Source: a virus
Length of the DNA: 64,000 nucleotides
IMG/VR virus record: IMGVR_UViG_3300028610_002494
Location: 1-64,000 of that record
Direction: 5' to 3' (one strand)
Shown: positions 12,761 through 59,805 of the stretch, in pieces
Numbering within the stretch: the stretch's first letter is position 1
Layout: every line of letters starts with the position of its first letter
Notes under the pieces: model-generated
The model's database searches: none
The model's input: the letters and a program-made list of their open reading frames with translations, nothing else
Told to the model about the DNA's origin: nothing
Translations under genes and position numbers: made by a program

Positions 12761-12788
12761 AATTAAACTTAAAATAAAACTGATTAAA

Positions 12789-32141: not shown

Positions 32142-32789
32142 ATGGTAAAAATAATTAAACAGTCTTATGAAATACTTACTGATCTTGATGGATTAGTAAT
32201 TCTCAAAAATATTGAGAAAGCTGCCAGAACTTGTTATAAATCTGAACATCTTATAATAGAAGATGGTGAATCTGCTAAGAAATTAGTTAAAAACTTAGTG
32301 GAAAGAGGACATACTGCTATGTTAGAACATGGTGGAATGATTTCTGTTAAGATAATTTGTAATAGAGGACTAACCCATGAATTAGTAAGACATCGATTAT
32401 GTAGTTATGCACAAGAAAGTACAAGATACTGTGATTATTCTAAAGATAAACATGGAAATGAAATAACAGTAATTAGACCATTAAATTTTCATAGTTATAG
32501 TTCTATAGAAAAAGAAAATCAAATATATTGGGCTTGGTGTCAAGCAATGGATGCAGCTGAACAATCATATTTTAGATTAAGAAAACTTGGAGTATCACCA
32601 CAAATAGCTCGTGGTGTACTTCCAATTGATATTAAAACTGAAATCATTATTTCTACTAATCCAACAGAATGGAGACACATACTAAAACTTAGAACTTCTC
32701 CAGCTGCTCATCCACAAATAAGAGCTATTATGATTGGAATATTAAAAGATTTTAAAAATAAAATACCAATTATATTTGATGATTTATGA
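32142..32789 (+). CDS. thyX: Flavin-dependent thymidylate synthase
   Basis: AARTCY, GH..MLEH, HELVRHR-x7-S (QESTRY), ARGVLP, LR...AHPQIR. Confidence 0.95.
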   Translation: MVKIIKQSYEILTDLDGLVILKNIEKAARTCYKSEHLIIEDGESAKKLVKNLVERGHTAMLEHGGMISVKIICNRGLTHELVRHRLCSYAQESTRYCDYSKDKHGNEITVIRPLNFHSYSSIEKENQIYWAWCQAMDAAEQSYFRLRKLGVSPQIARGVLPIDIKTEIIISTNPTEWRHILKLRTSPAAHPQIRAIMIGILKDFKNKIPIIFDDL

Positions 32790-38068: not shown

Positions 38069-38070
38069 AA

Positions 38071-39048
38071 ATGAGTAAAAGATTAACAAAAAGTTTTTTG
38101 GAAAAATATAGACCAAGAGTTAGGAAAGATATAGCTGGTAATTCTGTAGTTTTAGAAAGAATATTTAGCCAAATCGATCAAGGAACACTTGTGAATATGA
38201 TTCTCACAGGAGATTCTGGGTTAGGAAAAACTACAACAGCTGAAATTATAGCCAAAAAAATTATTGGAAAAGAACATTATTATACAGACTGTGTAATTTT
38301 CAATTGTAGTGATAAAACTGGTGTTAATAACATAAGAACTGAAATCATATCATTAGAAAAACTGAGACCACCAAGTGGCATAAGAATTTTTTTAATGGAA
38401 GAAAGTGAACAACTCAGTAAAAAAGCACAATTTGCACTTAAGAAAGCAATGGAATATCCTTATGATAAATCTAATAGGTTTATATTCTTAAGTAATAATA
38501 TAACTAAATTTATTCCAGCAATTAAAGACAGGTGTAGAATATATAATTATATGGCAATAAAACCAGATGAAATGTTTCCAAGACTTAAATATATTGTAGA
38601 ACAAGAAGAAATTGATATTTCTGGTAAATTATTACATACACTTGCTGAACTTTCAAATGGAAGTATGAGATATCCTATAATACAACTCGAGGAATTTAAA
38701 GCATTAAATAGAAAAATAATTGAAAAAGATATACAATTAGAAGAAAGTCTTGAAACAATTAAAATCATATTTAGTTTACTTAAATCAAGAAAAATTCCAC
38801 CTGCAAGGAATAAAATACTGGATTTATATCAAGATGGAAGTAATTTTAATAACATAATTAAGTATTTCCACGATTTTACGATGATGTCTTTAGGAAATAA
38901 CCTAAATTATAAATCTAAAGCAAAATGTTTGATTAAAATAGCTAAAACAGAACGAAATGTTAAGGAAGGATGTAATGAATTTATCCAAATAAGCTTTTTA
39001 TTATCAAATATAAGCATATTATTACAAAAAACAAAAACAGGTAATTAG
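38071..39048 (+). CDS. rfcS: Replication factor C small subunit (clamp loader)
   Basis: FLEKYRP, GDSGLGKTT, FNCSD.TG, EESEQL (variant Walker B), AQFAL, IKDRC; ATG follows the aggtg RBS. Confidence 0.88.
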   Translation: MSKRLTKSFLEKYRPRVRKDIAGNSVVLERIFSQIDQGTLVNMILTGDSGLGKTTTAEIIAKKIIGKEHYYTDCVIFNCSDKTGVNNIRTEIISLEKLRPPSGIRIFLMEESEQLSKKAQFALKKAMEYPYDKSNRFIFLSNNITKFIPAIKDRCRIYNYMAIKPDEMFPRLKYIVEQEEIDISGKLLHTLAELSNGSMRYPIIQLEEFKALNRKIIEKDIQLEESLETIKIIFSLLKSRKIPPARNKILDLYQDGSNFNNIIKYFHDFTMMSLGNNLNYKSKAKCLIKIAKTERNVKEGCNEFIQISFLLSNISILLQKTKTGN

Positions 39049-39585
39049 ATGTCAAAAAAGAATAAAAAAAATAAGAAATCATTTACGAATTTCTTTAGAG
39101 AAGGTAAAAATAAGAAATCATTTACGAATTTCTTTAGAGAAGGTATTTCTTGTGTTTTAGGTATTCCATCTGATGAAATAACTGATGAAAGTATCTATGA
39201 AAGTATAAAATCAATCAAAGAAATAAAATTTGATGTAAAAAGGATAAAAAGGAAGACAATTAAATGTGAAAATTGTTATAGTGATTTACTTGAGGATATT
39301 TCTAATATAGAAGATTTAGATTATAGAGGTGAAATGTTTAACGAATTCTGCCAAAAACTTCAAGAAATTACGAAAATAGAAACAACAATAGAAATGCTAA
39401 GAAATTGGAGAAAAGCTTTTAATAAAAAACAACAAGAAGACTCAATAATACCAAGAAAATGTTGTGAATGTAGTAATGAAAACAATATAACAAGAATACC
39501 ACAATGTTATGCTGGTAATTATAGAGGTTATGGAATTAAATATAAATGTGATGATTTTAAACCGAAGGTGATTAAGGATACCTAA
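39049..39585 (+). CDS. Hypothetical Cys-containing protein with duplicated N-terminal peptide
   Basis: KNKKSFTNFFREG twice. Confidence 0.55.
   Translation: MSKKNKKNKKSFTNFFREGKNKKSFTNFFREGISCVLGIPSDEITDESIYESIKSIKEIKFDVKRIKRKTIKCENCYSDLLEDISNIEDLDYRGEMFNEFCQKLQEITKIETTIEMLRNWRKAFNKKQQEDSIIPRKCCECSNENNITRIPQCYAGNYRGYGIKYKCDDFKPKVIKDT
39067..39144 (+). repeat. Perfect 39-bp tandem duplication
   Basis: aaaaataagaaatcatttacgaatttctttagagaaggt at 39067 and 39106. Confidence 0.95.
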
Positions 39586-45020: not shown

Positions 45021-45542
45021 ATGGAAAAAATAAAAAAGATAAAATTTGAACTAATTCAAATGGAAAAGAATTATCAAACAAACAAGTCCATTTTCGTGAA
45101 AGACAGAACAATATTTATAGTTGGAAGATCAAATAAGTTAGGTAAAAAAATATTTTTCGTAAATGATTTTTATCCAAGGTTTTATGTAGAAAAAGGAGAA
45201 AATATAGATTTCATCATTGAAGAACATAAAGATAAAATAAAAGAAATTAAAACTAAAGAAGATGGTGAAGAATATAACTACAAAAATCTTGGAGGAAAAG
45301 AAGAACTTATTACAATTTACATTTATAAAACTTCAGATATTGAGATAAGAGATTTGTTTAGCAAAACATATCAAGCAAATATTAAATTTACTGAAGTTTT
45401 TAAAAGGGAAAAACTCATAAAAGATAATTTTTATGTTCCAGAATACGTTTTTGAAATGAAAACAAGAACTTTCAAAATATATGGAATAGAATACATAATG
45501 ATAAAAGAAAATGAGATTGATGGAGGAGAATTGATATTTTAA
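45021..45542 (+). CDS. Stand-alone N-terminal domain of family B DNA polymerase
   Basis: IFIVGR...DFYPRFYV...TSDIEIRDLF..TYQANIKFTEVF....I parallels PolB NTD (F.PYFY, P.DV..LR, YEADIPF..RYLID); 60024 lacks this domain. Confidence 0.75.
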   Translation: MEKIKKIKFELIQMEKNYQTNKSIFVKDRTIFIVGRSNKLGKKIFFVNDFYPRFYVEKGENIDFIIEEHKDKIKEIKTKEDGEEYNYKNLGGKEELITIYIYKTSDIEIRDLFSKTYQANIKFTEVFKREKLIKDNFYVPEYVFEMKTRTFKIYGIEYIMIKENEIDGGELIF

Positions 45543-45907
45543 AAATATACATCTCAGGTGCTGTAGAAGACTCAGAAATAATAAATGAATTAGCAAGATA
45601 TTTTGAAAAATGTAAATGTAAAATAACTCGAAAATGGTGGCACTTTACTACTGAAGATATAATGAGATATCCATTATATATAGAAGAAGATATTAAAGCA
45701 ATCAGAAAATGTGACTTATTTATAATGTATAATACCAATAAAAAAACAAGTGGTAAATTTATAGAACTTGGCATGGCTATTATATTGAATAAACCTATTT
45801 TAATTTATGGAAAAGACATAACAAGTATGTTTAAATCAAGAACACAATATTGTGGAGAATTTAATATTCAAAAAGAGGAGAAAAGATGGAAACTAAAAAA
45901 GAATTAA
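45536..45907 (+). CDS. Nucleoside 2-deoxyribosyltransferase/DNPH1-like N-glycosidase
   Basis: Frame extends upstream to (M)LKIYISG with an ATT start after GGAGG; DIKAIRKCD...SGKFIELGMA....KPI. Confidence 0.75.
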   Translation: MLKIYISGAVEDSEIINELARYFEKCKCKITRKWWHFTTEDIMRYPLYIEEDIKAIRKCDLFIMYNTNKKTSGKFIELGMAIILNKPILIYGKDITSMFKSRTQYCGEFNIQKEEKRWKLKKN

Positions 45908-46372
45908 GTGTTAAAGATATAGTTAAAAAATTCATAGATGATGAAAAAACTGCTTTCTTTCAACTCATTTATGATAGTATTACACGTGCATCTTCAACAA
46001 AAAGACCAGCAAGAGCAACTATAAGATTGCCAAAATATATTTGTGATACAGACACAAGGGATTTAAGAAAATGGGAAATTATTTGTGTTGCTATTCCAAA
46101 AGAGAAAGTAATGAAACTTTTAGAGGAATAAAATTATGAGATGGAAAATACAAATCATTAATTTAGGAAGTAAAAAGAAAAGAAAGATTAAAGACCTAAA
46201 AGACTATATATATGAAATCGCAGCAAAAATACAGATTTTTGTTGTTGAATTAGCAGAAGAAGATGAAACAATACCACTAACAAAACAAGAAAAATTAAAA
46301 AGAACTGGTGATTTCCTTTTAAAATTACAAAAAGAAATATTAGAATTTAGGAGAAATAAATATTGTCGTTAA
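45886..46372 (+). CDS. Two hypothetical genes (45886-46131, 46136-46372)
   Basis: Coupled ORFs. Confidence 0.5.
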
Positions 46373-47022
46373 TGGATTTTATTGGAAATAAAAAACCATT
46401 GGAAGAATTTATCAAATCTAATAAAGAAGATATTAAATTCAAGAAAATTAAATTTGAAGATATAATCTTTAGTGCTTTCGTTCATTTAAAATGTATGAAT
46501 TGTGGAATGTATAAAAGAAATTATCACTGTTTAGCAACTCCAAGATGGAAAAAATCTAAAGAAAACTTATCAAAATATAATAATTATTACTTAGTTTACA
46601 TACAATTTGATAATAAACCAAGAATAAAGGATTATTTCAAGAAAAGAGAAGTGTTTAGAGCACAAGGAAGTAAAGGAATGAATGATTGGTTAATTTATAG
46701 GAATGCTTGTGGTGCAAATCAAGCAATCATAGTTAGTAAATTAAGAAAATTCTTGATAAATGTTAAAACACACTATTCTAAAGAAAAATTAAAACTTTTT
46801 GGTGCAGGTGGTGGATGTCGTGGTTGTAGAGTTTGTGGGTTGGTTAAACCACAAATGATTAAAGAACCAAGAGAACCATGTAAAAAACCAAACAAGACTT
46901 TTGGAGCACCTGAAAGTATCGGAATAGACGTATATGCAACTTTAAAGAGAAATAAAATAGAATATGATGTCATACCAAAAAATAAATTAATAACAGTAGG
47001 GTTGATATGTCAAAAACAATAA
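46363..47022 (+). CDS. DUF2284-like Cys-rich metal-binding protein
   Basis: CMNCGMY..NYHC, GGGCRGCRVC, PC..P, PESIGIDV. Confidence 0.75.
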   Translation: MSLMDFIGNKKPLEEFIKSNKEDIKFKKIKFEDIIFSAFVHLKCMNCGMYKRNYHCLATPRWKKSKENLSKYNNYYLVYIQFDNKPRIKDYFKKREVFRAQGSKGMNDWLIYRNACGANQAIIVSKLRKFLINVKTHYSKEKLKLFGAGGGCRGCRVCGLVKPQMIKEPREPCKKPNKTFGAPESIGIDVYATLKRNKIEYDVIPKNKLITVGLICQKQ

Positions 47023-47219
47023 ATTGTAATCTAAATTGTCCAGCTTGTCATACAAACATAACTAAGATGAAAGAACATCATTTAAATGAAGATTTAGCTG
47101 TATTTAGATGTTTTTATTGTGGATATACTCAAACTATTTCAAATAATGGAGAATTTGAACCACAAGAAGAATTGAATATATATTATAATGAATATATAAA
47201 AAAAGAAATTATGAAGTGA
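47007..47219 (+). CDS. Zinc-ribbon protein
   Basis: CPAC...CFYC. Confidence 0.55.
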   Translation: MSKTINCNLNCPACHTNITKMKEHHLNEDLAVFRCFYCGYTQTISNNGEFEPQEELNIYYNEYIKKEIMK

Positions 47220-47451
47220 AAAAAGAAAATGGCATGGAAATTAAGAACTTTTAAATGTAAAATTAAAAATAGAGACTATATCTCTGAGATGTTTAAGATA
47301 AATAAAAGAACTTATAATTACACAACAACCTTAGATGGTAAAGTTATTGCTCATGAAGAAAATCTCGAAATGGAGACAGCAGTTATACTTGAAGATCACA
47401 TTAAAGAAATAATTAAAAAAGAAAAAAGAATTTATCAAATGGAAAATTAAA

Positions 47452-48066
47452 ATGAGTCTTGAAAAATTTATAGGTATAAAAAGAGTAATAGATAACACAA
47501 TACCATCAGTTTTTATACATATTTTAGGTGGTCATAGTACTGGAAAGTCTGGAATAGTTGGAAGAATAAAACAAAAATATGGTGCTAAAATTATGGCACT
47601 TGGTAAGTATTCAAGAAGTAGAACAACAAAAGGACTGCTAACTGGTGGAATGGATGGAATACAGATGACCAACAAAGAACGATTTAAATACATTAAAAGA
47701 CATTTTCTTTCAAATAAACAAGTGTTATTGTGTGAAGGAATGATGGTTATTTATTATGATTCTTTTTTAAGCAAATACTATGAACTACAGAAAATAAAAC
47801 ACAGAACTGTTTATGTAATATTACTACAAACTGATATTGAAACAATGCGAAAAAGAATATCTAAAAGAAGTAAAGGAAAAGAACATAGTGAAAAAAGAGA
47901 AAGAAATTTAAGATCAAAAGCAAGTTGTTCTGAATCAACTTATAATAGACTTGAAGAAAATAGTACATTTATTAAAACTAAATTCGATACATCAGATTCT
48001 AAGATTTTTGATAATATAGTTATATATATATCTGAAATTATTGACAAAACACTAAAAAAGGAATAA
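47452..48066 (+). CDS. P-loop kinase resembling 5-hmdU DNA kinase
   Basis: GGHSTGKS, LGKY, GGMDGI (family GGxDxI), LLCEG, RI.KRS lid. Confidence 0.7.
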   Translation: MSLEKFIGIKRVIDNTIPSVFIHILGGHSTGKSGIVGRIKQKYGAKIMALGKYSRSRTTKGLLTGGMDGIQMTNKERFKYIKRHFLSNKQVLLCEGMMVIYYDSFLSKYYELQKIKHRTVYVILLQTDIETMRKRISKRSKGKEHSEKRERNLRSKASCSESTYNRLEENSTFIKTKFDTSDSKIFDNIVIYISEIIDKTLKKE

Positions 48067-48068
48067 AT

Positions 48069-48641
48069 ATGGATTTTTTGATAAGAAAAATTAAAAATGA
48101 AAATGATAAAACACAAATTAAAATAATTTGTGAAAGTGTGGACAATAAAACAGTGAAATCTTTTCCTAATATTTGGGAAAGATTTAATAACTGGGAAAAG
48201 AATCCACCTTATGTTGTTGAAATAGATGGAAAGATAATTGCTTTTATGGGATTCACGATTAATAGAAATAATTATATTAATTTTTATGATTTTGCAGTTT
48301 TACCTGAATACCAAAGAAAAGGTATTGGTTCAGCTTTATGGGATAAGGTTATTAAAATTGCAACAGAAAATAGTAAAACAAGAATAAAATGTTCTGCTCA
48401 CATAGATTATGGTGGATATTTCTTTTACACTAAGAAAGTTAATTGGAAACCAATTGCAAGAAAAGGGAAAGAATATAAATTTGATGCTTTAATTGAAGGA
48501 ATTGATAATATTAATGATTTTACAAAAAGTATAAAGAAACAAACTCCACCAGATAAAAAAGAGATTGAAAGATATCAGAGATTAGATGAGTATTTTTATA
48601 ACTTAACTAAAAAAATATGGGAGTACTTTAAAAAATGTTAG
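48069..48641 (+). CDS. GNAT acetyltransferase
   Basis: FAVLPEYQRKGIGSAL, FFY; ends KKIWEYFKKC. Confidence 0.88.
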   Translation: MDFLIRKIKNENDKTQIKIICESVDNKTVKSFPNIWERFNNWEKNPPYVVEIDGKIIAFMGFTINRNNYINFYDFAVLPEYQRKGIGSALWDKVIKIATENSKTRIKCSAHIDYGGYFFYTKKVNWKPIARKGKEYKFDALIEGIDNINDFTKSIKKQTPPDKKEIERYQRLDEYFYNLTKKIWEYFKKC

Positions 48642-49240
48642 AAACAATTGATGAAGAAGATAAAATAATTAGGAAATTAACTTTTAAAGAAAAATTAGAA
48701 ATTGGAAAATGTGGAGAAAAAATTACAGATGAGAGAATAGTAGATATAATCCATTTCTTTACAGCTTATAATTCACCAAGAAGATGGTATATAGAAAAAA
48801 GTGTATATCAAAAACTATCTCCATATGAAAGATATAAAAAATACCAAGGCAACGGAATTGATGGATTACTTCATTATGATAGCTTATTAGTTCAAGTAAA
48901 AACAAGACAACTTGCATATCTCTTAGAAGAAGACATATATTTTGAATTAGGAAGAAGTATAAAAGGAATAAATAAATATAGTGGATGGTATTGGAAAAAT
49001 ATTGATTTATTATTATATTATTTTTATAGCTTAACAAAAAAGAAGATAATGTGTGGATATGTTATACTTCTGGATGAATTTAAGAAAACATATAACACTC
49101 CTGTAAAAATTAATAAGAAGTTTGAAATAAAATGTGATTGGAACTTTAATCCAACAAAAATATATTTTTGTCCTAAATTTAAAGATTTTCCAAATAATTC
49201 ATTTTATGATATAACACCAATAGTAAAGGAGCTGGAATAA
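48635..49240 (+). CDS. PD-(D/E)XK nuclease-fold protein
   Basis: GKCGE...QGNGIDG....VQVKTR...IYFE. Confidence 0.6.
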   Translation: MLETIDEEDKIIRKLTFKEKLEIGKCGEKITDERIVDIIHFFTAYNSPRRWYIEKSVYQKLSPYERYKKYQGNGIDGLLHYDSLLVQVKTRQLAYLLEEDIYFELGRSIKGINKYSGWYWKNIDLLLYYFYSLTKKKIMCGYVILLDEFKKTYNTPVKINKKFEIKCDWNFNPTKIYFCPKFKDFPNNSFYDITPIVKELE

Positions 49241-49241
49241 A

Positions 49242-49658
49242 ATAAAACTAATTCCTGATGTAACAGATAAAACATTAGAAACAAAGAAATTTAATCCAAA
49301 ATTAATTTATGAATCTATATTAAGAGAAACTGATATTTCTGAAGAAGATGCTAAAAGAATTATGGAAGAAGTTGTAAGAAAATTAGTTTTTATGGGTAAA
49401 AAAATAAAGTTCCTATCTGCTCGAATGATAAGAGAAACGACAAATGCAACATTTCCAGAATATGGATTTGAAGAAGAAAGAAAAAAATATACAGTAATTG
49501 GAATTCCATTCTATGATTTAAAAAATTGGGTTGAAGATAAAACCTTAATTCAAACAGAAATTGATAAAAAAATAGTAGAACATATTAGAACTGAATATTT
49601 AAATGTAGAAAACCTAATAGAAACAATAAGAAATGGAGAAAATAATGAGAGATTATAA
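49242..49658 (+). CDS. Stand-alone ATP-cone protein resembling the N-terminus of archaeal class III RNR
   Basis: Frame extended to ATA 49242: FNPKLIYESILRETDISEEDAKRIMEEVVRKL..IKFLSARMIRE...YT.IGIPFYD. Confidence 0.72.
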   Translation: MKLIPDVTDKTLETKKFNPKLIYESILRETDISEEDAKRIMEEVVRKLVFMGKKIKFLSARMIRETTNATFPEYGFEEERKKYTVIGIPFYDLKNWVEDKTLIQTEIDKKIVEHIRTEYLNVENLIETIRNGENNERL

Positions 49659-50763
49659 TATAACAGACTACAGAACTGAAAGATGGAATGGTTTTAAGGA
49701 TTATTATATTAAAGAAATGTACTGTGGTGATGATCCAAATTATCCTGCTTTAAATTATATTTGTGATAAATTAAAACTAACTGAAGAACAGAGATATTGG
49801 ATTGCATTCTTATATGGAACTAATTATTGTGTTCCAACAACATATTACATTTTTAAGGAATTTCCTGATTATGAAAGAATAGATATTGACGAACTACAAC
49901 ATTGGTGGGATAAAAATAAAGAAAAAACACATTTCCAAACAGACAGAGCAAAAGTAAAGAACTTTAATTATTTTGTAAAATGTGTTGAAAGCTATCAAGA
50001 TTTAGTAGGAAAAAACCAAGTAGAAACTTTTGATATATTTACTGAAATAGATGATAATCAAGAAAAATATAAAATGGTTTATGATTTTACTAATGAAATA
50101 TTTTATTTTGGAAGATTTAGTTTATTTAATTATCTTGAAACAATTAATAAACTCACTAATTTAGAAATGGAACCAGATGGTTTAGATCTTAAATATGCAG
50201 AGAGTGCACGTAATGGACTATGTTATGCTTGTAATAAAGAAGAGTTTATCACATTACATCACAAAAAATCAAAAGAAAAGATAAATTATAGGTATTTACA
50301 AGAAAAACTCGAAACAATTGTATATGAATTAAAAGAAGAGAACCCTGAGATTGATGTAAACTACTGGAATGTTGAAACTGTTTTATGTGCATATAAAAAA
50401 CTATTCTGGAACACAAGATATCTTGGTTATTATATTGATAGACAAATGGAAGATATAATTAAATTGCAGAATAATGTAGATATAATAGATTGGAAAATTC
50501 TATGGGATTTTAGAGCTGAATTTCATCATCCACAATTTCTTGGTGAATTTAATGACTGGAATGGGATAAGAGAAGAGAACAAGTATTATGTAACAAAACA
50601 TGGAATACTTGATATTAAAGAATTTCCTAAATATAAAACCTGTTTAAGAAAAGTTGATTTACAATCTACTAAAAAACCAAAATTAATAAACAACTTAGAA
50701 CATTATAAAAGAAGAATAATAAGCAAAAAACCTAAACCAAAAAAAATATGGGAATATTTTTAA
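49633..50763 (+). CDS. aGPT-Pplase2-like amino acid:DNA transferase (thymidine hypermodification)
   Basis: EQRYWIAFLYG, FQTDR, FGRFS.FNYLE, S.RNGL, ETVLCAYK, RY.GYYIDR; likely start 49645; ends KKIWEYF. Confidence 0.8.
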   Translation: MEKIMRDYNITDYRTERWNGFKDYYIKEMYCGDDPNYPALNYICDKLKLTEEQRYWIAFLYGTNYCVPTTYYIFKEFPDYERIDIDELQHWWDKNKEKTHFQTDRAKVKNFNYFVKCVESYQDLVGKNQVETFDIFTEIDDNQEKYKMVYDFTNEIFYFGRFSLFNYLETINKLTNLEMEPDGLDLKYAESARNGLCYACNKEEFITLHHKKSKEKINYRYLQEKLETIVYELKEENPEIDVNYWNVETVLCAYKKLFWNTRYLGYYIDRQMEDIIKLQNNVDIIDWKILWDFRAEFHHPQFLGEFNDWNGIREENKYYVTKHGILDIKEFPKYKTCLRKVDLQSTKKPKLINNLEHYKRRIISKKPKPKKIWEYF

Positions 50764-50779
50764 AAAGAGGTGAAATATT

Positions 50780-51016
50780 ATAACAAATCATAAAGAAATA
50801 AGATACAAAATCTGTTTTAATTGTAAGGTGTTTATGCCAATTTTCACTTGTGATGCCATTAATCTACAAGAACTAACAAATTTCGAAAGAATACATAATG
50901 AACATATGGTTCAAACTATAAACTACAACGAAATACCTACAAATTATATATTTATTAAAGGCAAAAATGCAAGAGAAAGAACTTTAACACAAATTCAAAA
51001 AATGTTAGAAGTATGA
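50780..51016 (+). CDS. Small metal-binding protein (ATA start)
   Basis: CFNC...H..H; the track ORF at 50828 lacks the CxxC. Confidence 0.55.
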   Translation: MTNHKEIRYKICFNCKVFMPIFTCDAINLQELTNFERIHNEHMVQTINYNEIPTNYIFIKGKNARERTLTQIQKMLEV

Positions 51017-51174
51017 AAAAATGTAAGGGATGTGGATATCCTCAAAATCCACCAAATAGCAATAAAATTTGGTTATCTGAGGATGGTCTATGTTCAATAT
51101 GTTATTCAAAACAAATAAAACTTAAAAAAAATAATAAAAAACCTAAAAAAATATGGGAATATTATGATAATTAA
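51013..51174 (+). CDS. 53-aa zinc finger with KKIWEYY tail (not in ORF track)
   Basis: MKKCKGC...CSIC...KKPKKIWEYYDN. Confidence 0.6.
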   Translation: MKKCKGCGYPQNPPNSNKIWLSEDGLCSICYSKQIKLKKNNKKPKKIWEYYDN

Positions 51175-51655
51175 AATAAAGAAAATGGGAAGAAATGTAA
51201 AATTACCAACAAAACAAAGAGAAGGAGATGCTGGATATGATGCTTATATTTATGGTTTCCAGAAATATACTCAAAATAAAATTAATAAAAATAAAAATCC
51301 AGTTAATTTGAATAGATCAGAATATATTTTAGAACCATTAGAAAGGGTTGATTGTAGATTAGGATTTGCCACAGAAATTCCTGAAGGATATTATGCTCAA
51401 ATTGTACCAAGAAGTGGTTTAGCAATTTGGAATGGTTTAACTGTATTAAATACACCTGCTACAATTGATTCTGGTTTCAGAAATGAATGGATGGTGATAA
51501 TTGTTAATATTTCTGATAAAAAAGTGAAGTTAATAGTTGGAGACAGAATTTGTCAAATAATCATAAGAAAATTGGTGGAATTTGAATTTAAAGAAGTTAA
51601 AAAATTAAATAAATCTGAAAGAAATTTAAATGGATTAGGGAGCACAGGAAAATGA
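51164..51655 (+). CDS. dut: Trimeric dUTPase
   Basis: AGYD, PRSGLA, TIDSGFR, GDRICQ, R...GLGSTG. Confidence 0.93.
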   Translation: MIIKIKKMGRNVKLPTKQREGDAGYDAYIYGFQKYTQNKINKNKNPVNLNRSEYILEPLERVDCRLGFATEIPEGYYAQIVPRSGLAIWNGLTVLNTPATIDSGFRNEWMVIIVNISDKKVKLIVGDRICQIIIRKLVEFEFKEVKKLNKSERNLNGLGSTGK

Positions 51656-52854
51656 AAATATTAGTAATAGCAGGATATCTTGAAGCAAATATCAAGAATG
51701 AAACACACAAAACTCAAAGTATTAAAGGTGGAGCATCTAAAAGTATTACAAACATAGTTAATAGCTTAAGAGATATAAAAGGTATCCAAATAAAAGTTTT
51801 AACACAAAAATTTAGAAACAAACTCTTAAAATCACTTGATCTTGATGCTTATATATTAATTCCAAGAATAATAAAAAATATTTCGAAATTTAAACCTAAC
51901 ATTATTATAACACAAGACAGAATTGCTTTTCCAACAATTCTCATTTCCAAAATAATGAAAATTCCTGTTATTTATATAATCAGATCTCCCACAGAGTTTT
52001 GTCCAAAATATGTAGATGTTGTTAACTATGGAAAAGCATGTTCAGGAATAAATAACAGGAGACAATGTTTTAAATGTATTAATAAATGGAAAACCTTGCG
52101 GATTTTAATTGATAATAGACCAAAAGGTTCAGAATATTCCATTAAAGCTTCTTTATTAAATGTTTTTTTTAAAATACGATATTTTATATGTTTATTCAAT
52201 TTGTATTTAACTAAAAAAGCTAATATGATTCTGGTTGCTTCTACATTAATGAAAGAATTTTTTTCCAATAAGATAAACCAAGATAAAATTAAAATAATTA
52301 ATATAACTCCAATCCACAAATATATAAATAATGTAAATAGAAAAAAGAAACAATTGATATTTATCAGAACCCATTATAATGCTGCACATAAAGGTTTAAA
52401 TTTCATTTTAAAATTATCAAAAATTATACCTGAAAAATATCGTATTTTAATAGTTGGCAGTTCTGAGGACAAACAACAAGAAAATAATCCAAAAATATTA
52501 AATGTTGGATATATTTCTTCTAAAATATTACTTAACAAAATGTTTGCAGAATCCAAGATCACTTTAGTTCCATCTTTCTTTACTGAAGCTTTTGGAAGGA
52601 TTATTCCTGAAAGTTTGTCAAATAAAACTCCAGTTATCTCTTCTCCACAATGTGGTGCAAACCAATTTTTTAAGGAAAAAGATTTTTTAAGGGTTGTTCC
52701 TTTAAAATTAAACTTATGGATAAAAACAATTGAAGATATTATCCAAAATCCTCCAATTATTACTGATAATGATATTTCTCAAATTTATGAGCAATTCTCA
52801 TTAGAAAAGAGTAAAAAAGATTTAATGAATATAATAAAAAATATTAAAAGGTGA
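51652..52854 (+). CDS. GT4-like glycosyltransferase with Cys-rich insert
   Basis: GGA N-terminal loop, KGL, PSFFTEAFGRIIPES...PVI. Confidence 0.85.
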   Translation: MKILVIAGYLEANIKNETHKTQSIKGGASKSITNIVNSLRDIKGIQIKVLTQKFRNKLLKSLDLDAYILIPRIIKNISKFKPNIIITQDRIAFPTILISKIMKIPVIYIIRSPTEFCPKYVDVVNYGKACSGINNRRQCFKCINKWKTLRILIDNRPKGSEYSIKASLLNVFFKIRYFICLFNLYLTKKANMILVASTLMKEFFSNKINQDKIKIINITPIHKYINNVNRKKKQLIFIRTHYNAAHKGLNFILKLSKIIPEKYRILIVGSSEDKQQENNPKILNVGYISSKILLNKMFAESKITLVPSFFTEAFGRIIPESLSNKTPVISSPQCGANQFFKEKDFLRVVPLKLNLWIKTIEDIIQNPPIITDNDISQIYEQFSLEKSKKDLMNIIKNIKR

Positions 52855-53454
52855 TTAAAATAAAAGAATGGAAAGAATGGAATTCATTTATACAATGGAT
52901 ATGTATTATTGGTTTTTTTTTAATAATTATAATGGTATTTATTGAAGTTTTTTATTTTATTATAAATATTCCAGATGAACTTATTCTTGGGATTCGTGAA
53001 AATAGTATAGGGAAACATTATCTCAATAATCCAGAATTAGTAGCTGAGATGGAAGCTTTAGCATCATCATCTGAGTTTTTACATTATACAATAGTATTTT
53101 TATTATATACATTGATATGTATAGTATTATTTTTTTCATATAATGAGGTTAGAGAAAATGAAAAAATATTTAAAAAAAGGAAAAAACATAGAAAAAAATA
53201 AATTGAAACACATTTTTAAATCTATTTTATTCTATACTAAACTTGTGTTTTATGTTTCAATAGGAATTTTAAGTTTAGGAATGATATTTGTATTGTTTAT
53301 GGGTTCGGATTTAGAAGAAGAAATATTTGAAGATGAATATGAATTAATGAGGAGAAGAGAACAATTAGAAGATGATTTAATATCAGAAAAGACAAAAAAA
53401 TACAATAAATTAACTTTAATAAAAAAAGAGGAAAATAATGAAAGAGAAATATAA
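52851..53454 (+). CDS. Two membrane proteins (52851-53201, 53143-53454)
   Basis: TM helices. Confidence 0.45.
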
Positions 53455-54181
53455 AGATTGGAAAGAAGCATTTCAAATGAAAAAAAAGTATTCAAAAAAC
53501 TTTCCATTTTGTTTCTATGATTTAGCTGCAAAATATTTACCTGAAGATGAGAAAGCTATAGTTATTGATGTTGGTTGTGGAGAATGTAGATTTGAGGATT
53601 ATCTTGATCTATGGAACAAATATAAAAATTTATTTGTTTTAGATGGAAATCTTGAAACTGTTGATAAAATAAAAGAAAAAACAAGATTGATACATGAATT
53701 TGATTATACAATTGAATATATAGCACCAAATAGAATGTTATTTGAAAATGAATCAGTGGATTATATATTTTGTGGACACTTAATAGAACATCTTGATTTC
53801 AAGGAATTATATAAATTATTTAAAGAATTTGATCGAGTTTTAAAAAATGATGGAATTCTTGTTGTAAGCACTCCTATGTTATGGAATGGTTTTTATGGGA
53901 CACTTAGTCATGTAAAACCTTATCATCCAGCACTTTTCAAGGATTATTTTTATACTGATGATGAAAATATAAACCCATCATATAAACCTATTTCCAGAAA
54001 ATATAAACTTGAGGAACTTGTTTATAGATACCATACATTTGTAGATATACATAATACAATGGGATCATCTATAAAAGCATTTGATTTTCTAATTCAATTC
54101 TCGAAGTATGTTTTGAGAGCTTTAGGAATAAAAAAATATACTCAAACTGGATATACAATAATTTTAAGGAAACAAAAATGA
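53438..54181 (+). CDS. Class I SAM-dependent methyltransferase
   Basis: IDVGCG, HLIEHL, RVLK.DG.LVVSTP. Confidence 0.85.
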   Translation: MKEKYKDWKEAFQMKKKYSKNFPFCFYDLAAKYLPEDEKAIVIDVGCGECRFEDYLDLWNKYKNLFVLDGNLETVDKIKEKTRLIHEFDYTIEYIAPNRMLFENESVDYIFCGHLIEHLDFKELYKLFKEFDRVLKNDGILVVSTPMLWNGFYGTLSHVKPYHPALFKDYFYTDDENINPSYKPISRKYKLEELVYRYHTFVDIHNTMGSSIKAFDFLIQFSKYVLRALGIKKYTQTGYTIILRKQK

Positions 54182-54858
54182 ATAACATTAAAGATACAAG
54201 CTGGATTTCATATAAAACACTTCAATCACATTTTATGCAAATTTATTTAACAATAAAACTAAAAGCTAAAGATGTTCTTGAGATTGGAGTATTAAGGAAA
54301 ATTGTCACTTCTATTTTAAATCAATATTGTAATTTAACCACTCTTGATTTTAAAGAAGAGTTTAATCCAGACTTGATTATTGATATTACTGATTCTAAAC
54401 AGCTTGATACCATTAAAAATAATGCTTATGATTTAATATTACTCTGTGAAGTGTTAGAACATATTTCTTATGAAAAAATAGATAAAATACTCAAAATATT
54501 AAAAAAGAAAACAAGAAAATACCTAATAATTTCAGTTCCAAATCAAACTACATATATAAATCTAACTTTCTTTAATCACAGTAATAATAGAATACTTAAA
54601 AAAATAAAAGATTATTTTAATTTATTTTTTATTAAAATAGGAAACTTAATTTCAAAATTAGACTATAATATAAGGAAAAAACATAGAAAATATAAATCCG
54701 AAGGGACTTTCTTTCCTCATTGTTGGGAATTAGGAGTAGATAAATATAGTATAAACACATTTAAAAAACTATTAGAAAAGTATTTTACAATTATAAAAGA
54801 AGAAAGACTTAGAGATCATCCTTTTCACCATTTTTTTATATTAAAAAAGAGGTTATAA
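54178..54858 (+). CDS. Class I SAM-dependent methyltransferase
   Basis: VLEIG, YDLILLCEVLEHI, IISVP. Confidence 0.8.
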   Translation: MNNIKDTSWISYKTLQSHFMQIYLTIKLKAKDVLEIGVLRKIVTSILNQYCNLTTLDFKEEFNPDLIIDITDSKQLDTIKNNAYDLILLCEVLEHISYEKIDKILKILKKKTRKYLIISVPNQTTYINLTFFNHSNNRILKKIKDYFNLFFIKIGNLISKLDYNIRKKHRKYKSEGTFFPHCWELGVDKYSINTFKKLLEKYFTIIKEERLRDHPFHHFFILKKRL

Positions 54859-54859
54859 A

Positions 54860-55594
54860 ATGGGATTAACAAATGTTATCATTGATTTTCAAGAAGAAAT
54901 CATTCAAAAAATAGGTTTTCAATGGCAAAACATAAGAATATGTGAACTTGGTGCTATGTATATGAGAACAGTTGATATTCCTGCAAAAGAATATTATATT
55001 AAAGAAAAAAAAGTATTAGAACATATATCTATTGATTGGAATGGTATGTATGATTCACTTCCAATTGATTTATGTTTTCCTGTTCCTGAAGAATTATTAA
55101 ATAGATTTCATTTAATAACTGATTTTGGAACAATAGAACATGTAGATAATCAATATCAAGTTTTTAAAAATACACATGATATATGTACTAAAAATGGAAT
55201 TATGATCCACATCTTACCAACCTTAAATTATTGGAAATTTCATTGTCGTTATTTTTATACAAAAGAATTCTTTTTAAAATTAGCAGAATTATGTAAATAT
55301 AAAACTCTTGATTTAAAAGAAGGAAATTGTTGTGATCCACCAATATTTAAGAGAGATTTGATTTATGTAGCATTTTTAAAACTAAATAATAATAAATTTA
55401 CTTCAGAAAAAGAATTTAATAAGCTTAATATATTTGATATAAAAGAACCAGATAATACTAACAAACTTAGAACAGAAAATATTGTTTACATTTTATGGAA
55501 ATTAACAGAACACCAATTTTTTTTGAAGGGTTTTCGTAAAATACTTAAAAATATCTATAAGATATATATAAATGTTAAAAAAGGTATAAAATGA
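54860..55594 (+). CDS. Class I SAM-dependent methyltransferase-like protein
   Basis: ICELG, DFGTIEHV, G.MIHILP. Confidence 0.7.
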   Translation: MGLTNVIIDFQEEIIQKIGFQWQNIRICELGAMYMRTVDIPAKEYYIKEKKVLEHISIDWNGMYDSLPIDLCFPVPEELLNRFHLITDFGTIEHVDNQYQVFKNTHDICTKNGIMIHILPTLNYWKFHCRYFYTKEFFLKLAELCKYKTLDLKEGNCCDPPIFKRDLIYVAFLKLNNNKFTSEKEFNKLNIFDIKEPDNTNKLRTENIVYILWKLTEHQFFLKGFRKILKNIYKIYINVKKGIK

Positions 55595-56466
55595 AAACAA
55601 GAATATTCATACTCTGTGCAGGGAAAAATGTAAAATATTATGGAATTACAAGACAATTATTAAAGATAAATGGAGAAGAAATATTAGGAAGAATGATTAG
55701 ATTAATAAAAGAAGAATGTAATTATGAGATTTTTATAATCACCAATAATGATATTATAGAGAATTATATTAAAAGTATTAGAAATAATAAAATTATACTT
55801 TTTCATCCTGCTGCTGAACGATATCATATGGAAAGCTTATATTCAACTAAAGAAGAATGGGTTGAAAGAAATATATTCTTATTTGGTGATGTAGTGTTCT
55901 CTAAACATGCTATAAAAAAAATATTAAATTCTGATAATAAATTAAGTTTCTTCTTTAGAATAAAACCACATTTATATTTAAACAAACGTTATCCTGAAGG
56001 TTTTGGTATGTTAATTCCATTGAATGAAACTAATAGGATGTCAGATATCATTTTAAGATCCTATAAAAGAGCATCTATACATGGTGGAGTATTTATATTT
56101 AATAGTATTTGGAAAGAACTTAATTTAAGATTAGGAGAAGAACATTTAGAATTTGAATCTTATAAAACACGTGATTTAATCAGTAAACTATGCTTAAATG
56201 AATTTATAAGAGGTATTTTTTATGGAATAATACGATCCATTGAAGGAAAAATAATACGATTTATTTTTTATAAAGCTAAAATATCTGATAAATGGAAAAA
56301 TAAACTTGTTAAATTATTTTTAGGGAAAAAAATTCCAGATTATAATAAAAACTTATTATCATCTAAATACATTGTAGAAATACATGATATAACTGATGAT
56401 ATAGATCATCCAAGAGAGTATAAAGATTATATTAAACTAATAGTGAAAAAAGGTTTATTACAATGA
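55591..56466 (+). CDS. Nucleotidyltransferase (NTP_transferase/LicC-like, GT-A fold)
   Basis: FILCAG, QLLKINGE.IL.R, FGDV, DDID. Confidence 0.72.
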   Translation: MKTRIFILCAGKNVKYYGITRQLLKINGEEILGRMIRLIKEECNYEIFIITNNDIIENYIKSIRNNKIILFHPAAERYHMESLYSTKEEWVERNIFLFGDVVFSKHAIKKILNSDNKLSFFFRIKPHLYLNKRYPEGFGMLIPLNETNRMSDIILRSYKRASIHGGVFIFNSIWKELNLRLGEEHLEFESYKTRDLISKLCLNEFIRGIFYGIIRSIEGKIIRFIFYKAKISDKWKNKLVKLFLGKKIPDYNKNLLSSKYIVEIHDITDDIDHPREYKDYIKLIVKKGLLQ

Positions 56467-57377
56467 TGGATGCTACTGATAAATTTACTACAATTGGTTT
56501 TGAAATAACGAACCACTGTAATAAAAACTGTAAATTTTGCACTAAGATGACAGGATATAAATATAAAATCAGATATACAAAATTAGATGATTATGAATAT
56601 GTTGTGTCTTGTATAAACAAGAAAGACAGAGAAAAATTTAGAAAAGTAGTGATCACTGGTGGAGAACCACTTTTACATCCACATTTTATAGAATTAATGA
56701 ATTTAGTAAGAAAAGATTTTCCGAAAGCTGAGATTAAAGTACAATCAAATGGAAGATTAATTAAAAGATTGCCACAAAAGAAATTAAGAATTTTACCTAA
56801 TATAAAAAAAGTAATATTTTCAGTATCCCATTATCCAAGCTGGAACGATGAAATAAAGAAAATATATGACGGAAATATTAAAACACCGTTAATTTATAGA
56901 AGAGTAATCAGAAAACTAACCAAAAATAACAAATTTATAAAATTACTCAATTTAGATTATAGAATTCCATTTATAAAAAAAGTAAGACGATTTATTAGCA
57001 ATCCTTTTAAAAGAGGAAATGTTTACTTTAAGAATTTCACAGGATTTCGTGATCCTTATGTAGATCCAAATCTAACGAAAGAAAATGCAAAAATAGTTAG
57101 AAAAACATGTCATTATTTTATTTGGATAATAGACAGAAAGCTTTATAGCTGTTGTGTAGATTCTGTTTATGAAAGATATTATAACACCAAATCTGTTGGT
57201 ATTAAATTTGATAAAAACTGGAAAAAAAATTATTTCAAATTACCAACATGGAGAGCTTGTGCTCATTGTCCACAAGGATATAATAGGTACATAGTAATTA
57301 GTTCAGGATTTGAAAAATATAAATTAATTAGTTTAAGAAAAAGATTAGAATTTGTGAGGATTAAAACCCATGTTTAA
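56463..57377 (+). CDS. Radical SAM enzyme
   Basis: CNKNCKFC, TGGEPLLHP, SNG; C-terminal C...CC...CxxC. Confidence 0.88.
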   Translation: MMDATDKFTTIGFEITNHCNKNCKFCTKMTGYKYKIRYTKLDDYEYVVSCINKKDREKFRKVVITGGEPLLHPHFIELMNLVRKDFPKAEIKVQSNGRLIKRLPQKKLRILPNIKKVIFSVSHYPSWNDEIKKIYDGNIKTPLIYRRVIRKLTKNNKFIKLLNLDYRIPFIKKVRRFISNPFKRGNVYFKNFTGFRDPYVDPNLTKENAKIVRKTCHYFIWIIDRKLYSCCVDSVYERYYNTKSVGIKFDKNWKKNYFKLPTWRACAHCPQGYNRYIVISSGFEKYKLISLRKRLEFVRIKTHV

Positions 57378-57804
57378 AAAAATAAAATTATCACAATTCA
57401 TTGGCAGACAATTATCAAGATTAAAAATGGGTCAAGTATATTATGTAATGGGAATGTATTCTATAACAGCTGTAGGAATATTAAAAGTAGCATTTCCACA
57501 AATAAGTATTTGGACATTTATACTTTTTATTCCATTTATGTTTGTTGGAGCTTTTTTAATTGGTTTTATTGCAGATAGAAGTAATGTTACAACGATGGAT
57601 TATCAGAAGACAATAGAGATGACAAACAGATATTTAACCATTTTAGACTTTAAAAATAATGATTTTAGAATACTCCAAATGGAAACTATGTTTGAATGGA
57701 TAAAATCCTTAAAAGAAAATAAACCTTTAGATAAAAATATATTAAATGAGAAATATAAAGAATTTTTAAATAAATGGAGTCCTAAAAAAGAAAATGAAAA
57801 ATAA
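57370..57804 (+). CDS. Two-TM membrane protein
   Basis: Two hydrophobic helices. Confidence 0.5.
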   Translation: MFKKIKLSQFIGRQLSRLKMGQVYYVMGMYSITAVGILKVAFPQISIWTFILFIPFMFVGAFLIGFIADRSNVTTMDYQKTIEMTNRYLTILDFKNNDFRILQMETMFEWIKSLKENKPLDKNILNEKYKEFLNKWSPKKENEK

Positions 57805-58515: not shown

Positions 58516-59805
58516 ATGAAATATAAAATGAAAGAATTAAGTATTGAAATAACATATAAATGTCCAATGAATTGTATTCATTGTAGCAGTAGAGCAGAAC
58601 TTGAAAATGAGACAATGATACCAACAGAAAAGATTTTAGAAATGATTGGAAGATGTAAAATATACTGTGGAACTGAATGTGTTTCTCTTTCAGGTGGAGA
58701 ACCATTTGAACATCCTGATTTCTGGAAAATATTAAAACACATTAAAGCTCAAGGTTTAAAAAGTATAGTTTATTCTTGTGGAATTGAGATGTCACCTGAT
58801 GGATATTATTGGTGTTTTAGTGATGAAAGAATAAAAAAACTAAAAACCTTATGTGATGTGTTAATAATAAGTTTACATGGAACTGGTGATAAACATAATA
58901 AAATATTAAATATTGGAGATACTGCTTTTTGGAATGTATTATATACAATAATGAAAGCAGTGCGTGAAAGTATTAAAGTTGAAATTCACTTTGTTCCTAT
59001 GTCTTTTAACTATAAAGACATTAAAATTATATATGGAGTCTGTATGGCACTTGGTGTTTCTAAAATGTCAATATTACGATATGTACCACAAGGAAGAGGA
59101 TTAGAAACAAGTAAAACTGAAGGAGAAATAAACCTAAATAAACCACAATTTATCGAACTACAATATGATATGAGATATATAAGAGATTTATCTAAAATCA
59201 CTGGTATGACTGAATTTAGAATTGGTATTCCAGCAGACTTTACATTTTTACTTGATTATCTTGAAGGGAATAATGATGCCAAAAAAACTAAAGCTTGTAC
59301 AGGTGGAAAAACTAAAATACTTGTAAAAGCTGATGGGTTTGTTCAAGTATGTCCTGCTTGGAAAGAACTTGATCACCTTTCAGCAGGAAATATTTATAAA
59401 GAAGATATTGTAGATATATGGAAAAAAGGAAATACTTATTGTAAATTTAGAGAATTTACCTATAAAGATTTAGGAGAACCATGTAAAAATTGTAAACTTG
59501 TTGAAAGTTGTTTAGGTGGTTGTGGAGCTCAAAGAATTTTGAATTCAACCTTTAAAGAAATAAATGGACTAAAAATTGCTCCTGATCCATTATGTTTTTA
59601 TGATGAAATAGAACTTACTAAAAAAGGGTTGATTGAATTAATAGATATATTAGAACTAAAGAAATGGTTAATCAATAAAAAAGAAGAATATGAAGAAATT
59701 GCTGTTAATTCAATGTCAGATTCACGAGCAGTTAATTATATGGCAAGAACAACTACTATTAAAGAAATCCTTAAATATATTGAAGAAATAAAAGAGATTA
59801 ATTAA
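58516..59805 (+). CDS. Radical SAM/SPASM domain protein
   Basis: CPMNCIHC, SGGEP, CTGG...G.VQVCP, CKNC....SCLGGC. Confidence 0.9.
   Translation: MKYKMKELSIEITYKCPMNCIHCSSRAELENETMIPTEKILEMIGRCKIYCGTECVSLSGGEPFEHPDFWKILKHIKAQGLKSIVYSCGIEMSPDGYYWCFSDERIKKLKTLCDVLIISLHGTGDKHNKILNIGDTAFWNVLYTIMKAVRESIKVEIHFVPMSFNYKDIKIIYGVCMALGVSKMSILRYVPQGRGLETSKTEGEINLNKPQFIELQYDMRYIRDLSKITGMTEFRIGIPADFTFLLDYLEGNNDAKKTKACTGGKTKILVKADGFVQVCPAWKELDHLSAGNIYKEDIVDIWKKGNTYCKFREFTYKDLGEPCKNCKLVESCLGGCGAQRILNSTFKEINGLKIAPDPLCFYDEIELTKKGLIELIDILELKKWLINKKEEYEEIAVNSMSDSRAVNYMARTTTIKEILKYIEEIKEIN

Follow-up and report, generated by a model that had tools for sequence, protein, structure and literature searches.

A probable phage-type thymidine hypermodification cassette, with a putatively oxygen-independent first step, in a complete 112-kb virus-like genome probably of Asgard archaea

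Thymidine hypermodification has so far been worked out only in bacteriophages. The known pathways begin from 5-hydroxymethyl-2′-deoxyuridine (5-hmdU) made by a dUMP hydroxymethylase of the ThyA family, and the characterised amino acid:DNA transferases (ADDTs) all act on 5-phosphomethyl-2′-deoxyuridine (5-PmdU) in DNA (PMC8989533). In phage PaMx11, which makes 5-acetylaminomethyl-2′-deoxyuridine (5-AcNmdU), the pathway consists of a glycine:DNA transferase (gp46), an FAD lyase (gp47), an acetyltransferase (gp48), a 5-hmdU DNA kinase (5-HMUDK; gp49) and a dUMP hydroxymethylase (gp51) (PMC8989533). Phage ViI reaches 5-(2-aminoethoxy)methyl-2′-deoxyuridine (5-NeOmdU) through the serine:DNA transferase gp247, the kinases gp243 and gp67 and the pyridoxal phosphate (PLP) decarboxylase gp226, and phage M6 reaches 5-(2-aminoethyl)-2′-deoxyuridine (5-NedU) through the ADDT gp51, the PLP enzyme gp52, the radical S-adenosylmethionine (rSAM) isomerase gp53 and the kinase gp54. 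For some metagenomic contigs, a TET/JBP dioxygenase that works on T within DNA is the predicted source of 5-hmdU (PMC8989533; PMC13229309). Here we analyse the first 64,000 nucleotides (the window) of the 111,837-bp IMG/VR record IMGVR_UViG_3300028610_002494, in which a first-pass annotation had proposed a thymidine-hypermodification-type system of an archaeal virus at 45536–51655. On balance we favour the view that a functional cassette of the phage type is encoded here, in a virus-like genome that is complete at 112 kb and probably has Asgard archaea as hosts; the first step of the cassette we infer to be independent of oxygen. The genes that carry this argument are the following:

46363..47022, + strand: DUF2284 protein, a probable Fe–S redox protein with a nitroreductase-like fold (PF10050, 66 bits)
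47452..48066, + strand: divergent 5-hmdU DNA kinase, a P-loop protein of 204 amino acids with the Walker A motif GGHSTGKS (profile–profile match)
48069..48641, + strand: GNAT acetyltransferase with a KKIWEYF-KKC tail (PF00583)
49633..50763, + strand: ADDT, aGPT-Pplase clade 2 (PF18724; C-terminal peptide KKIWEYF)
58516..59805, + strand: radical SAM/SPASM enzyme, outside the interval of the first-pass annotation
32142..32789, + strand: ThyX, flavin-dependent thymidylate synthase (PF02511, 143 bits)

The open reading frame (ORF) at 49633–50763 had been read as an aGPT-Pplase2-like transferase, and this reading held. The protein scored 72.2 bits against PF18724 (cut-off 26.2; 73.4 bits in a six-frame search), and it matched phrog_3271, the family of ViI gp247, at an E-value of 2e-41 and the PaMx11-type PHROG at 2e-5. 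A tblastn search retrieved 382 phage records at approximately 30% identity, mostly from Ackermannviridae. In M6 gp51 and ViI gp247, a Cys and a neighbouring Glu are essential, and mutating either one abolishes activity (Lee et al., PMC8989533). The corresponding residues of the window protein, E248 and C252 (ETVLC), align with ETILC of PaMx11 gp46 and ETSGAC of ViI gp247 and are invariant across 32 relatives. Relatives in IMG/VR were found with an alignment-based scan; a single-protein scan of IMG/VR with the window ADDT gave no match. By homology, the protein is a true ADDT that is closer to the serine type of ViI than to the glycine type, a placement from which the amino acid used is not readable.

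The candidate kinase, which the first-pass annotation had called a 5-hmdU-kinase-like P-loop protein, belongs to the same gene array as the ADDT, 1.6 kb upstream of it, and the two genes are paired in 98 of the loci examined. Its similarity to known kinases is visible to profile methods only. Pfam returned weak, sub-threshold matches to AAA_17/18 and nothing else, tblastn against 50,697 phage records gave no match, and pairwise BLAST against PaMx11 gp49 and ViI gp243 was marginal. The sole PHROG match was to phrog_800 ('terminase small subunit', E = 2e-4), which is the family of PaMx11 gp49 (5e-30). A hidden Markov model (HMM) of the kinase family matched P-loop ORFs beside the ADDT in approximately 40 viral loci, including PaMx11 gp49 at 8e-6, and a profile seeded on gp49 alone converged on 58 ORFs that included ViI gp243, a second experimentally validated 5-HMUDK. 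The gp49-seeded profile missed the window kinase in plain hmmsearch, whereas the reverse direction and hhalign succeeded, the latter aligning the two profiles over 160 columns with a probability of 99.2% (E = 8e-20). For the helical domain HMUDK_hel (PF18723), nothing in the genome matched at E ≤ 1; short kinases can probably do without it, given that the experimentally validated PaMx11 5-HMUDK gp49 has only 189 amino acids. On these profile matches, we accept 47452–48066 as a divergent 5-HMUDK. Both genes on whose family membership the proposal had been staked beforehand, 49633 and 47452, thus matched the ADDT and 5-HMUDK families.

The GNAT gene, named as such in the first-pass annotation, scored 56.3 bits against PF00583 (cut-off 20.7) and carries the acetyl-CoA motif (Q/RxxGxG/A) as QRKGIGSA. 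Of 59 IMG/VR ADDT loci, 16 contain a GNAT of this family. In G001/L083 and L082 the gene immediately after the ADDT is an orthologue, and in P0003 and P0005 the orthologue is fused to the C terminus of an ADDT whose transferase part is 64% identical to that of the window. Because of these fusions, comparison with relatives strongly supports a GNAT tailoring step in the pathway. Together with the two family matches above, the fusions argue for a thymidine-hypermodification-type system, as had been proposed.

We then considered whether the cassette might act on something other than the virus's own thymidine, either as a remnant that lacks its first step or with host DNA, RNA or a 5-hydroxymethyl-cytosine derivative as its substrate. 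Such a role would fit the absence of a known hmdU source (see below) and the nature of the kinase, which is very divergent and belongs to a rare subfamily with only 23 relatives among 1.84 billion representatives. However, the catalytic residues of the ADDT are intact and conserved in its relatives, the module is kept at 49–81% identity, and the substrate of all characterised ADDTs is 5-PmdU in DNA (PMC8989533). Neither a C5-cytosine methylase nor a dCMP hydroxymethylase was found in the genome, where the DNA methylases found are of the N6/N4 type. We regard a substrate other than viral thymidine as very improbable.

The cluster can be compared with each of the described systems. Like PaMx11, it combines a short P-loop 5-HMUDK (approximately 190–200 amino acids), an ADDT with an ET..C site and a GNAT, and an acetylated product is predicted. 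Unlike PaMx11, the genome shows no FAD lyase by BLAST (no match to gp47) and no ThyA-type hydroxymethylase, its ADDT falls in the ViI-type PHROG and its GNAT has no specific relationship to the PaMx11 acetyltransferase; it adds DUF2284, the rSAM-SPASM enzyme, an ATP-cone-like protein and tails resembling PCNA-interacting peptides (PIP), and its host would be archaeal. ViI contributes the closest characterised ADDT, with approximately 30% identity, the same PHROG and the catalytic Glu and Cys kept. It differs in that ViI makes hmdUMP in the nucleotide pool, that the window genome has no PLP decarboxylase, and that the kinases are of 204 (window) and 304 (ViI) amino acids with a BLAST match at motif level only. 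The window shares with M6 a thymidine hypermodification cluster that holds a radical SAM enzyme, but M6 has a ThyA-type enzyme and its gp53 has no BLAST similarity to either rSAM protein of the window. When the tailoring enzymes of M6, PaMx11 and ViI (PLP, FAD, rSAM and gp50/gp55) were compared by BLAST with all ORFs of the genome, only the ADDT was matched; no PLP decarboxylase, FAD lyase or M6-type rSAM isomerase was found. The earlier remark that no PLP decarboxylase or flavin lyase is evident was therefore borne out at the level of BLAST. With the metavirome contigs that carry ADDT, 5-HMUDK and TET/JBP genes (PMC8989533; PMC13229309), the window would share a post-replicative logic in which T is converted to hmU in situ and then hypermodified. 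This TET/JBP-paired type accounts for 19 of the 36 IMG/VR relatives of the window ADDT. Unlike these contigs, the window genome has no TET/JBP gene, a radical SAM/SPASM enzyme takes the place of the partner gene, and its host is likely to be anaerobic.

Judged by homology searches, the genome is without a known 5-hmdU source, a point overlooked in the first reading. Six-frame searches of the whole genome gave no match to ThyA (PF00303) or TET/JBP (PF12851) at E ≤ 1. Unfiltered HMMs gave nothing below E = 0.6 when built from phage hydroxymethylases and nothing below E = 0.98 when built from 21 TETs of ADDT loci, and hhalign of part of the large ORFs against ThyA, mini-ThyA and TET profiles gave nothing above 9.5%. 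The genome does encode ThyX, in which the canonical RHRxxSxxxxSxR and all other ThyX motifs align to solved ThyX structures. Because ThyX is present and ThyA and TET are not, the hydroxymethyl group is probably made on thymine that is already in DNA, without oxygen.

The same observations leave room for a different role of ThyX, namely as a flavin-dependent dUMP hydroxymethylase that uses water in place of hydride, such that hmdU is polymerised as in SPO1, M6 and ViI while the rSAM-SPASM enzyme and DUF2284 serve in tailoring. ThyX is the sole C1-transferring pyrimidine enzyme in the genome, its mechanism goes through an exocyclic methylene (PMC8989533), and the dUTPase of the cluster would feed dUMP. 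It is also carried by G003 and G009, two near-complete ADDT genomes that lack ThyA and TET, and in G009 it lies 3 kb from the ADDT. The canonical motifs are all intact, though, with no mark of changed chemistry, and in the window ThyX is 17 kb from the ADDT. ThyX is likewise present in the TET-bearing G028 and G031, where it most simply supplies T, and four of the six rSAM-bearing records, which are incomplete, show no ThyX. In all, it accompanies rSAM or TET routes (G003, G009, G028, G031 and this genome) and never the ThyA route. As a ThyX-type hydroxymethylase would, to our knowledge, also be the first of its kind, we consider this role quite unlikely.

With the first step placed on thymine in DNA, the radical SAM/SPASM enzyme at 58516–59805 becomes a candidate to perform it. 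It matched PF04055 (62.5 bits), the SPASM family PF13186 (37 bits) and TIGR04085 (42 bits). The residues C16/C20/C23 of its CxxxCxxC core and its C-terminal Cys residues are invariant in six homologues, and the closest solved structures are PqqE, anSME and SkfB. Two closely related, AT-rich metagenomic contigs connect this gene to the core. L079 (6.2 kb, GC 24%) holds a homologue of the ORF at 45021, DUF2284 (70%), the kinase (70%), a homologue of the ORF at 48635 (71%), the ATP-cone-like gene and the ADDT (81%), with two other genes between, one of which encodes a different GNAT-like protein; its module genes are kept at 49–81% identity. L080 (12.9 kb, GC 25%) has the ATP-cone-like gene and the ADDT (61%), followed by homologues of 50828, 51013, 57794 and 57969, and then, near the ADDT, the rSAM-SPASM gene (71%), PolB (62%) and following genes. 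A distant virus group with a GC content of 40% (L084–L087, L089 and L093) has the order PolB, one ORF without assignment, DUF2284, kinase, phosphatase-domain protein, rSAM-SPASM, ADDT and a 201-amino-acid ThyA-like protein. Here the kinase is of the window's subfamily (98 bits), and the rSAM-SPASM homologues, at 31–35% identity, stand directly upstream of the ADDT except in L093, where approximately 0.8 kb lie between. DUF2284 occurs together with kinase, rSAM-SPASM and ADDT in L084/L086/L087 and with kinase and ADDT in L079. The first-pass annotation had therefore placed the core correctly, but, as judged from gene neighbourhoods, the conserved module extends past 51655 to the rSAM-SPASM gene at 58516–59805, and the closest relatives do not keep the NDT-like gene and the dUTPase, both of which it had included, as part of the module.

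The ThyA-like protein of the GC-40% group, found directly after the ADDT (L084:7379–7984; L085–L087, L089 and L135), is a separate observation. It matches PF00303 at 27 bits and in L084 has lost the catalytic Cys, with Pro-Ser in place of Pro-Cys; it may be a relic that binds nucleotides without catalysis, or an enzyme put to a new use. A possible kinship between it and the window ORF at 48635–49240, as a mini-ThyA, was dropped because the two showed no similarity.

To ask which first-step genes accompany ADDTs more widely, we tabulated partner genes across loci. Among 36 IMG/VR ADDT records, TET is found in 19, ThyA in 5 and rSAM in 6, and no record combines two of them. Each of the seven records with a completeness of 90% or more carries one, and just one, of the three, and in the two of these that carry rSAM (G003 and G009) the rSAM gene adjoins the ADDT. 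A larger set of 121 ADDT loci (L006–L139) collapsed to 64 lineages at 90% ADDT identity, labelled TET (17), rSAM family A (18), rSAM family B (5), ThyA (5) or none (19, mostly short contigs); two labels occur in none of them. Family A (approximately 425–476 amino acids, weakly like M6 gp53) and family B (the SPASM type of the window) are unrelated to one another, yet both adjoin ADDT and kinase, and neither shares a locus with the other, with TET or with ThyA. In a quick maximum-likelihood tree of ADDTs, the window grouped with L079, L080 and L088 (support 99), inside a set in which all labelled members are family B. Partner labels were clustered on this tree, changing 19 times compared with 35.5 times when shuffled, yet each label still required at least 3 or 4 changes.

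These patterns also bear on the possibility that the core works as proposed while its hydroxymethyl group comes from an unrecognised enzyme elsewhere in the genome. In that case the rSAM-SPASM protein would mature a peptide or cofactor, or act in tailoring as in M6, and its place among the replication genes would be incidental. In favour of this, Pfam and PHROGs leave most of the genome's ORFs without a match, peptide maturation is the typical role of SPASM enzymes, the rSAM gene is flanked by conserved small ORFs both in this record (G000) and in L080, and M6 offers a precedent for rSAM as a tailoring enzyme (PMC8989533). Yet a maturase or tailoring enzyme sits poorly with the strict exclusivity of ADDT-adjacent rSAM with TET and ThyA, which extends over the 64 lineages and, with this genome counted, has no exception among the eight that are complete or nearly so. 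Nor does it fit well with the distant virus group, where family B rSAM immediately precedes the ADDT and stop and start codons overlap in places. We judge a hidden source of this kind to be unlikely, and return to the rSAM-SPASM enzyme as the candidate for the first step.

The DUF2284 protein is the second redox candidate. Its presence in the cluster had been noted in the first-pass annotation and agrees with the PF10050 score. It has seven conserved Cys residues (six invariant and one nearly so), including CxxCxxC...C. Its AlphaFold2 (AF2) model has a pLDDT of 79; the top 50 VIA rows were all nitroreductase, BluB, IYD (iodotyrosine deiodinase), QueG (epoxyqueuosine reductase) or CblC folds, a superfamily that binds flavin or corrinoid, with a best Z of 8.7. 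A Foldseek search with the model gave no match at E ≤ 0.001. The nitroreductase-fold signal in the model is uniform, with Z scores that are middling. One conjecture from this model is that DUF2284 could fill a redox role like that of the flavin lyase in a PaMx11-style pathway.

Several features of the record suggest a virus-like genome of archaea as the home of this module. The record carries an exact 144-bp direct terminal repeat, has a GC content of approximately 25% and bears nearly all of its long ORFs on the + strand; it is a complete virus-like genome of approximately 112 kb with terminal repeats at its ends. Module genes run head to tail on one strand with stops overlapping starts, an operon-like packing that chance would hardly produce. 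Replication is served by genes of archaeal–eukaryotic type: an RFC-like clamp loader, FEN1 (XPG_N/XPG_I), PolB, a Hel308-like helicase and a type IA topoisomerase. The nearest relatives of FEN1 are unnamed metagenomic proteins, and its named relatives, at 45–49% identity, all belong to Asgard archaea (Promethearchaeota/Lokiarchaeota, Thor-, Hermod- and Hodarchaeota), from which we take the host to be probably an Asgard archaeon. Asgard archaea are anaerobes, so an oxygen-dependent TET would not work there. The archaeal-virus setting proposed at first thus agrees with the terminal repeats, the RFC, FEN1, PolB and Hel308-like genes and the relatives of FEN1. A full-text literature search found no paper on a thymidine hypermodification cluster in an archaeal virus, in keeping with the earlier statement that no characterised archaeal example was known, and none on a ThyX or rSAM route to 5-hmdU.

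The C termini of the cluster proteins suggest a link to replication. The genome contains three copies of the peptide KKIWEY[FY], each at the C terminus of a cluster protein (GNAT, ADDT and a 53-amino-acid protein), at 48618–48641, 50740–50763 and 51148–51174, and IWEY too occurs just three times. ADDT relatives end in KKIWEYF, KSIWDYV, GNLSNWLNKK, GNVLYWLNKK or GLGRWI, some kinase relatives end in GNLKGWF, and the C terminus of the viral FEN1 is a canonical PIP box, QINLAKFLK. The KKIWEY[FY] tails probably serve to dock the enzymes on one shared partner, for which a PCNA-type clamp is the likeliest candidate. PCNA_N itself had no Pfam match anywhere in the genome, and a 178-amino-acid ORF that follows the RFC gene has no family. 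The third bearer of the tail and the clamp loader are:

51013..51174, + strand: Cys-rich 53-amino-acid protein, C terminus KKIWEYYDN (translation; homologue after the ADDT in L080)
38026–39585: RFC-like clamp loader

Taken together, the gene content suggests the following pathway. ThyX would supply dTMP, and the viral PolB would incorporate T. Some of the T in DNA would then be converted to 5-hmdU without oxygen, with the rSAM-SPASM enzyme (58516) as the candidate catalyst; its chemistry could consist of hydrogen abstraction from the methyl group, removal of an electron through the auxiliary clusters and capture of water. DUF2284 (46363) may be its redox partner or a further tailoring enzyme. 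The kinase (47452) would phosphorylate 5-hmdU in replicated DNA to 5-PmdU, the ADDT (49633) would displace the phosphate through its Cys/Glu site and attach a free amino acid, and the GNAT (48069) would acetylate the amine of the adduct or of a derivative. The predicted end product is an N-acetylated amino-acid or aminoalkyl thymine derivative that would protect the DNA against nucleases of the host. The kinase, ADDT and GNAT steps are assigned by homology to characterised enzymes, and the first step is deduced from gene content and exclusivity. A more specific picture, which we regard as speculative and rather doubtful, is that the rSAM-SPASM enzyme and DUF2284 act as an anaerobic counterpart of TET/JBP on the thymine methyl group of double-stranded DNA, feeding clamp-docked kinase, transferase and acetyltransferase, so that an Asgard virus would decorate its DNA during replication.

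Several points weigh against this pathway and its setting. We know of no rSAM thymine hydroxylase. SPASM enzymes with solved structures act on peptides or cofactors, and the conserved small ORFs beside the rSAM-SPASM gene could be peptide substrates. The only characterised rSAM enzyme in such pathways, M6 gp53, is a tailoring isomerase beside a ThyA-type enzyme (PMC8989533), and in the window the rSAM-SPASM gene is 7.7 kb from the ADDT. Most of the compared loci are fragments, which makes the absence of TET or ThyA from them weak evidence, and the exclusivity partly follows ADDT clades and so reflects few independent events. Neither the amino acid used nor the final base is readable from sequence. 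The host assignment stands on the relatives of one host-like gene. No capsid, portal or terminase was recognised with Pfam and PHROGs among 30 large ORFs, and the term 'virus' therefore rests on the IMG/VR classification and the terminal repeats; a virion module, if any, would be of an undescribed type.

The remaining genes in and around the cluster are:

45021–45542: 173-amino-acid ORF without a family, directly upstream of the module (86% identical in L079, L079:1–276)
45536..45907, + strand: NDT/DNPH1-like N-glycosidase-fold protein, accessory (PF05014)
47007..47219, + strand: zinc-ribbon protein of 70 amino acids between DUF2284 and the kinase (weak zinc-ribbon Pfam matches only)
48635..49240, + strand: 201-amino-acid protein without an assigned fold, D...QVK motif, possible PD-(D/E)XK nuclease
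49242..49658, + strand: ATP-cone-like protein overlapping the ADDT start (non-canonical start codon needed in the window)
51164..51655, + strand: dUTPase, first gene of the block missing in L080 (PF00692, 77 bits; phrog_135, 4e-42)
51652..57804, + strand: inserted block with a GT1 glycosyltransferase, two SAM methyltransferases, a sugar-1-P nucleotidyltransferase-like protein and a second rSAM protein (304 amino acids)
35263–36696: N6/N4 DNA methylase fused to an Mrr-like nuclease domain
63571–64329: second N6/N4 methylase with the C-terminal PIP-like peptide GVLGWL

Two of the functions predicted from the letters were recovered here by family searches, which brings to six of eight the named components confirmed at their stated coordinates. 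The NDT/DNPH1-like protein scored 30.5–31.4 bits against PF05014 (cut-off 28.8) and matched NDT and a CMP N-glycosidase in the PDB at E-values of 8e-4 to 0.03, and the dUTPase call agrees with its PF00692 score; the NDT-like gene is absent from L079. The full NDT-like domain, with its Rossmann N terminus, is obtained only if translation begins at 45536, where the codon is none of ATG, GTG and TTG: both here and for the ATP-cone-like protein at 49242, full domains need ATT or ATA starts directly after upstream stops. Two other calls stand as weak leads. The window ATP-cone-like protein had no match to PF03477, and its orthologues in L088 and L080 reached 19.2 and 14.5 bits, below the cut-off of 25.8; what stood is the conserved position, as the gene directly precedes the ADDT in L079, where it has an ATG start, and precedes it in L080 and L088. 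The putative PD-(D/E)XK nuclease at 48635–49240 has a 71% identical homologue at the same position in L079, but no Pfam or PDB sequence match, and its AF2 model (pLDDT 38) is unusable. Its ESM Atlas look-alikes are viral hypothetical proteins, with NOV_C and PDDEXK_14/16 as the nearest named clusters, which are leads only. The two N6/N4 methylases indicate that the genome also methylates DNA by ordinary means.

The block at 51164–57804 is read as an insertion because it is absent from L080, where the genes on the ADDT side run straight to the homologues of 57794 and 57969 and the rSAM-SPASM gene. For the same reason, the glycosyltransferase, methyltransferase and nucleotidyltransferase genes (51652–57804) were rejected as the core of the pathway. 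Their Pfam and NCBIfam matches are generic and mostly below curated cut-offs. Whether the block belongs to the pathway is uncertain: its enzymes could add sugars to hmU or work in sugar metabolism unconnected with it. The 90-kb contig L126, whose ADDT is a distant one (33%), holds a homologue (37%) of the window ORF at 54860–55594 and a small rSAM gene, a relative of which in L122 weakly matches 56463–57377 by BLAST; the genes noted in L126 are at 796–1425 and 11869–12810. By these similarities, parts of the inserted block may recur with ADDT systems.

With the cassette described here, the range of exotic DNA bases would come to include viruses of the prokaryotes most closely related to eukaryotes. 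The genome offers the rSAM-SPASM enzyme, DUF2284 and ThyX as candidates for making 5-hmdU without oxygen, and the PIP-like tails suggest how post-replicative modification may be coupled to a PCNA-type replisome. If true, the rSAM route would represent new DNA enzymology and could provide an anaerobic DNA-labelling tool.

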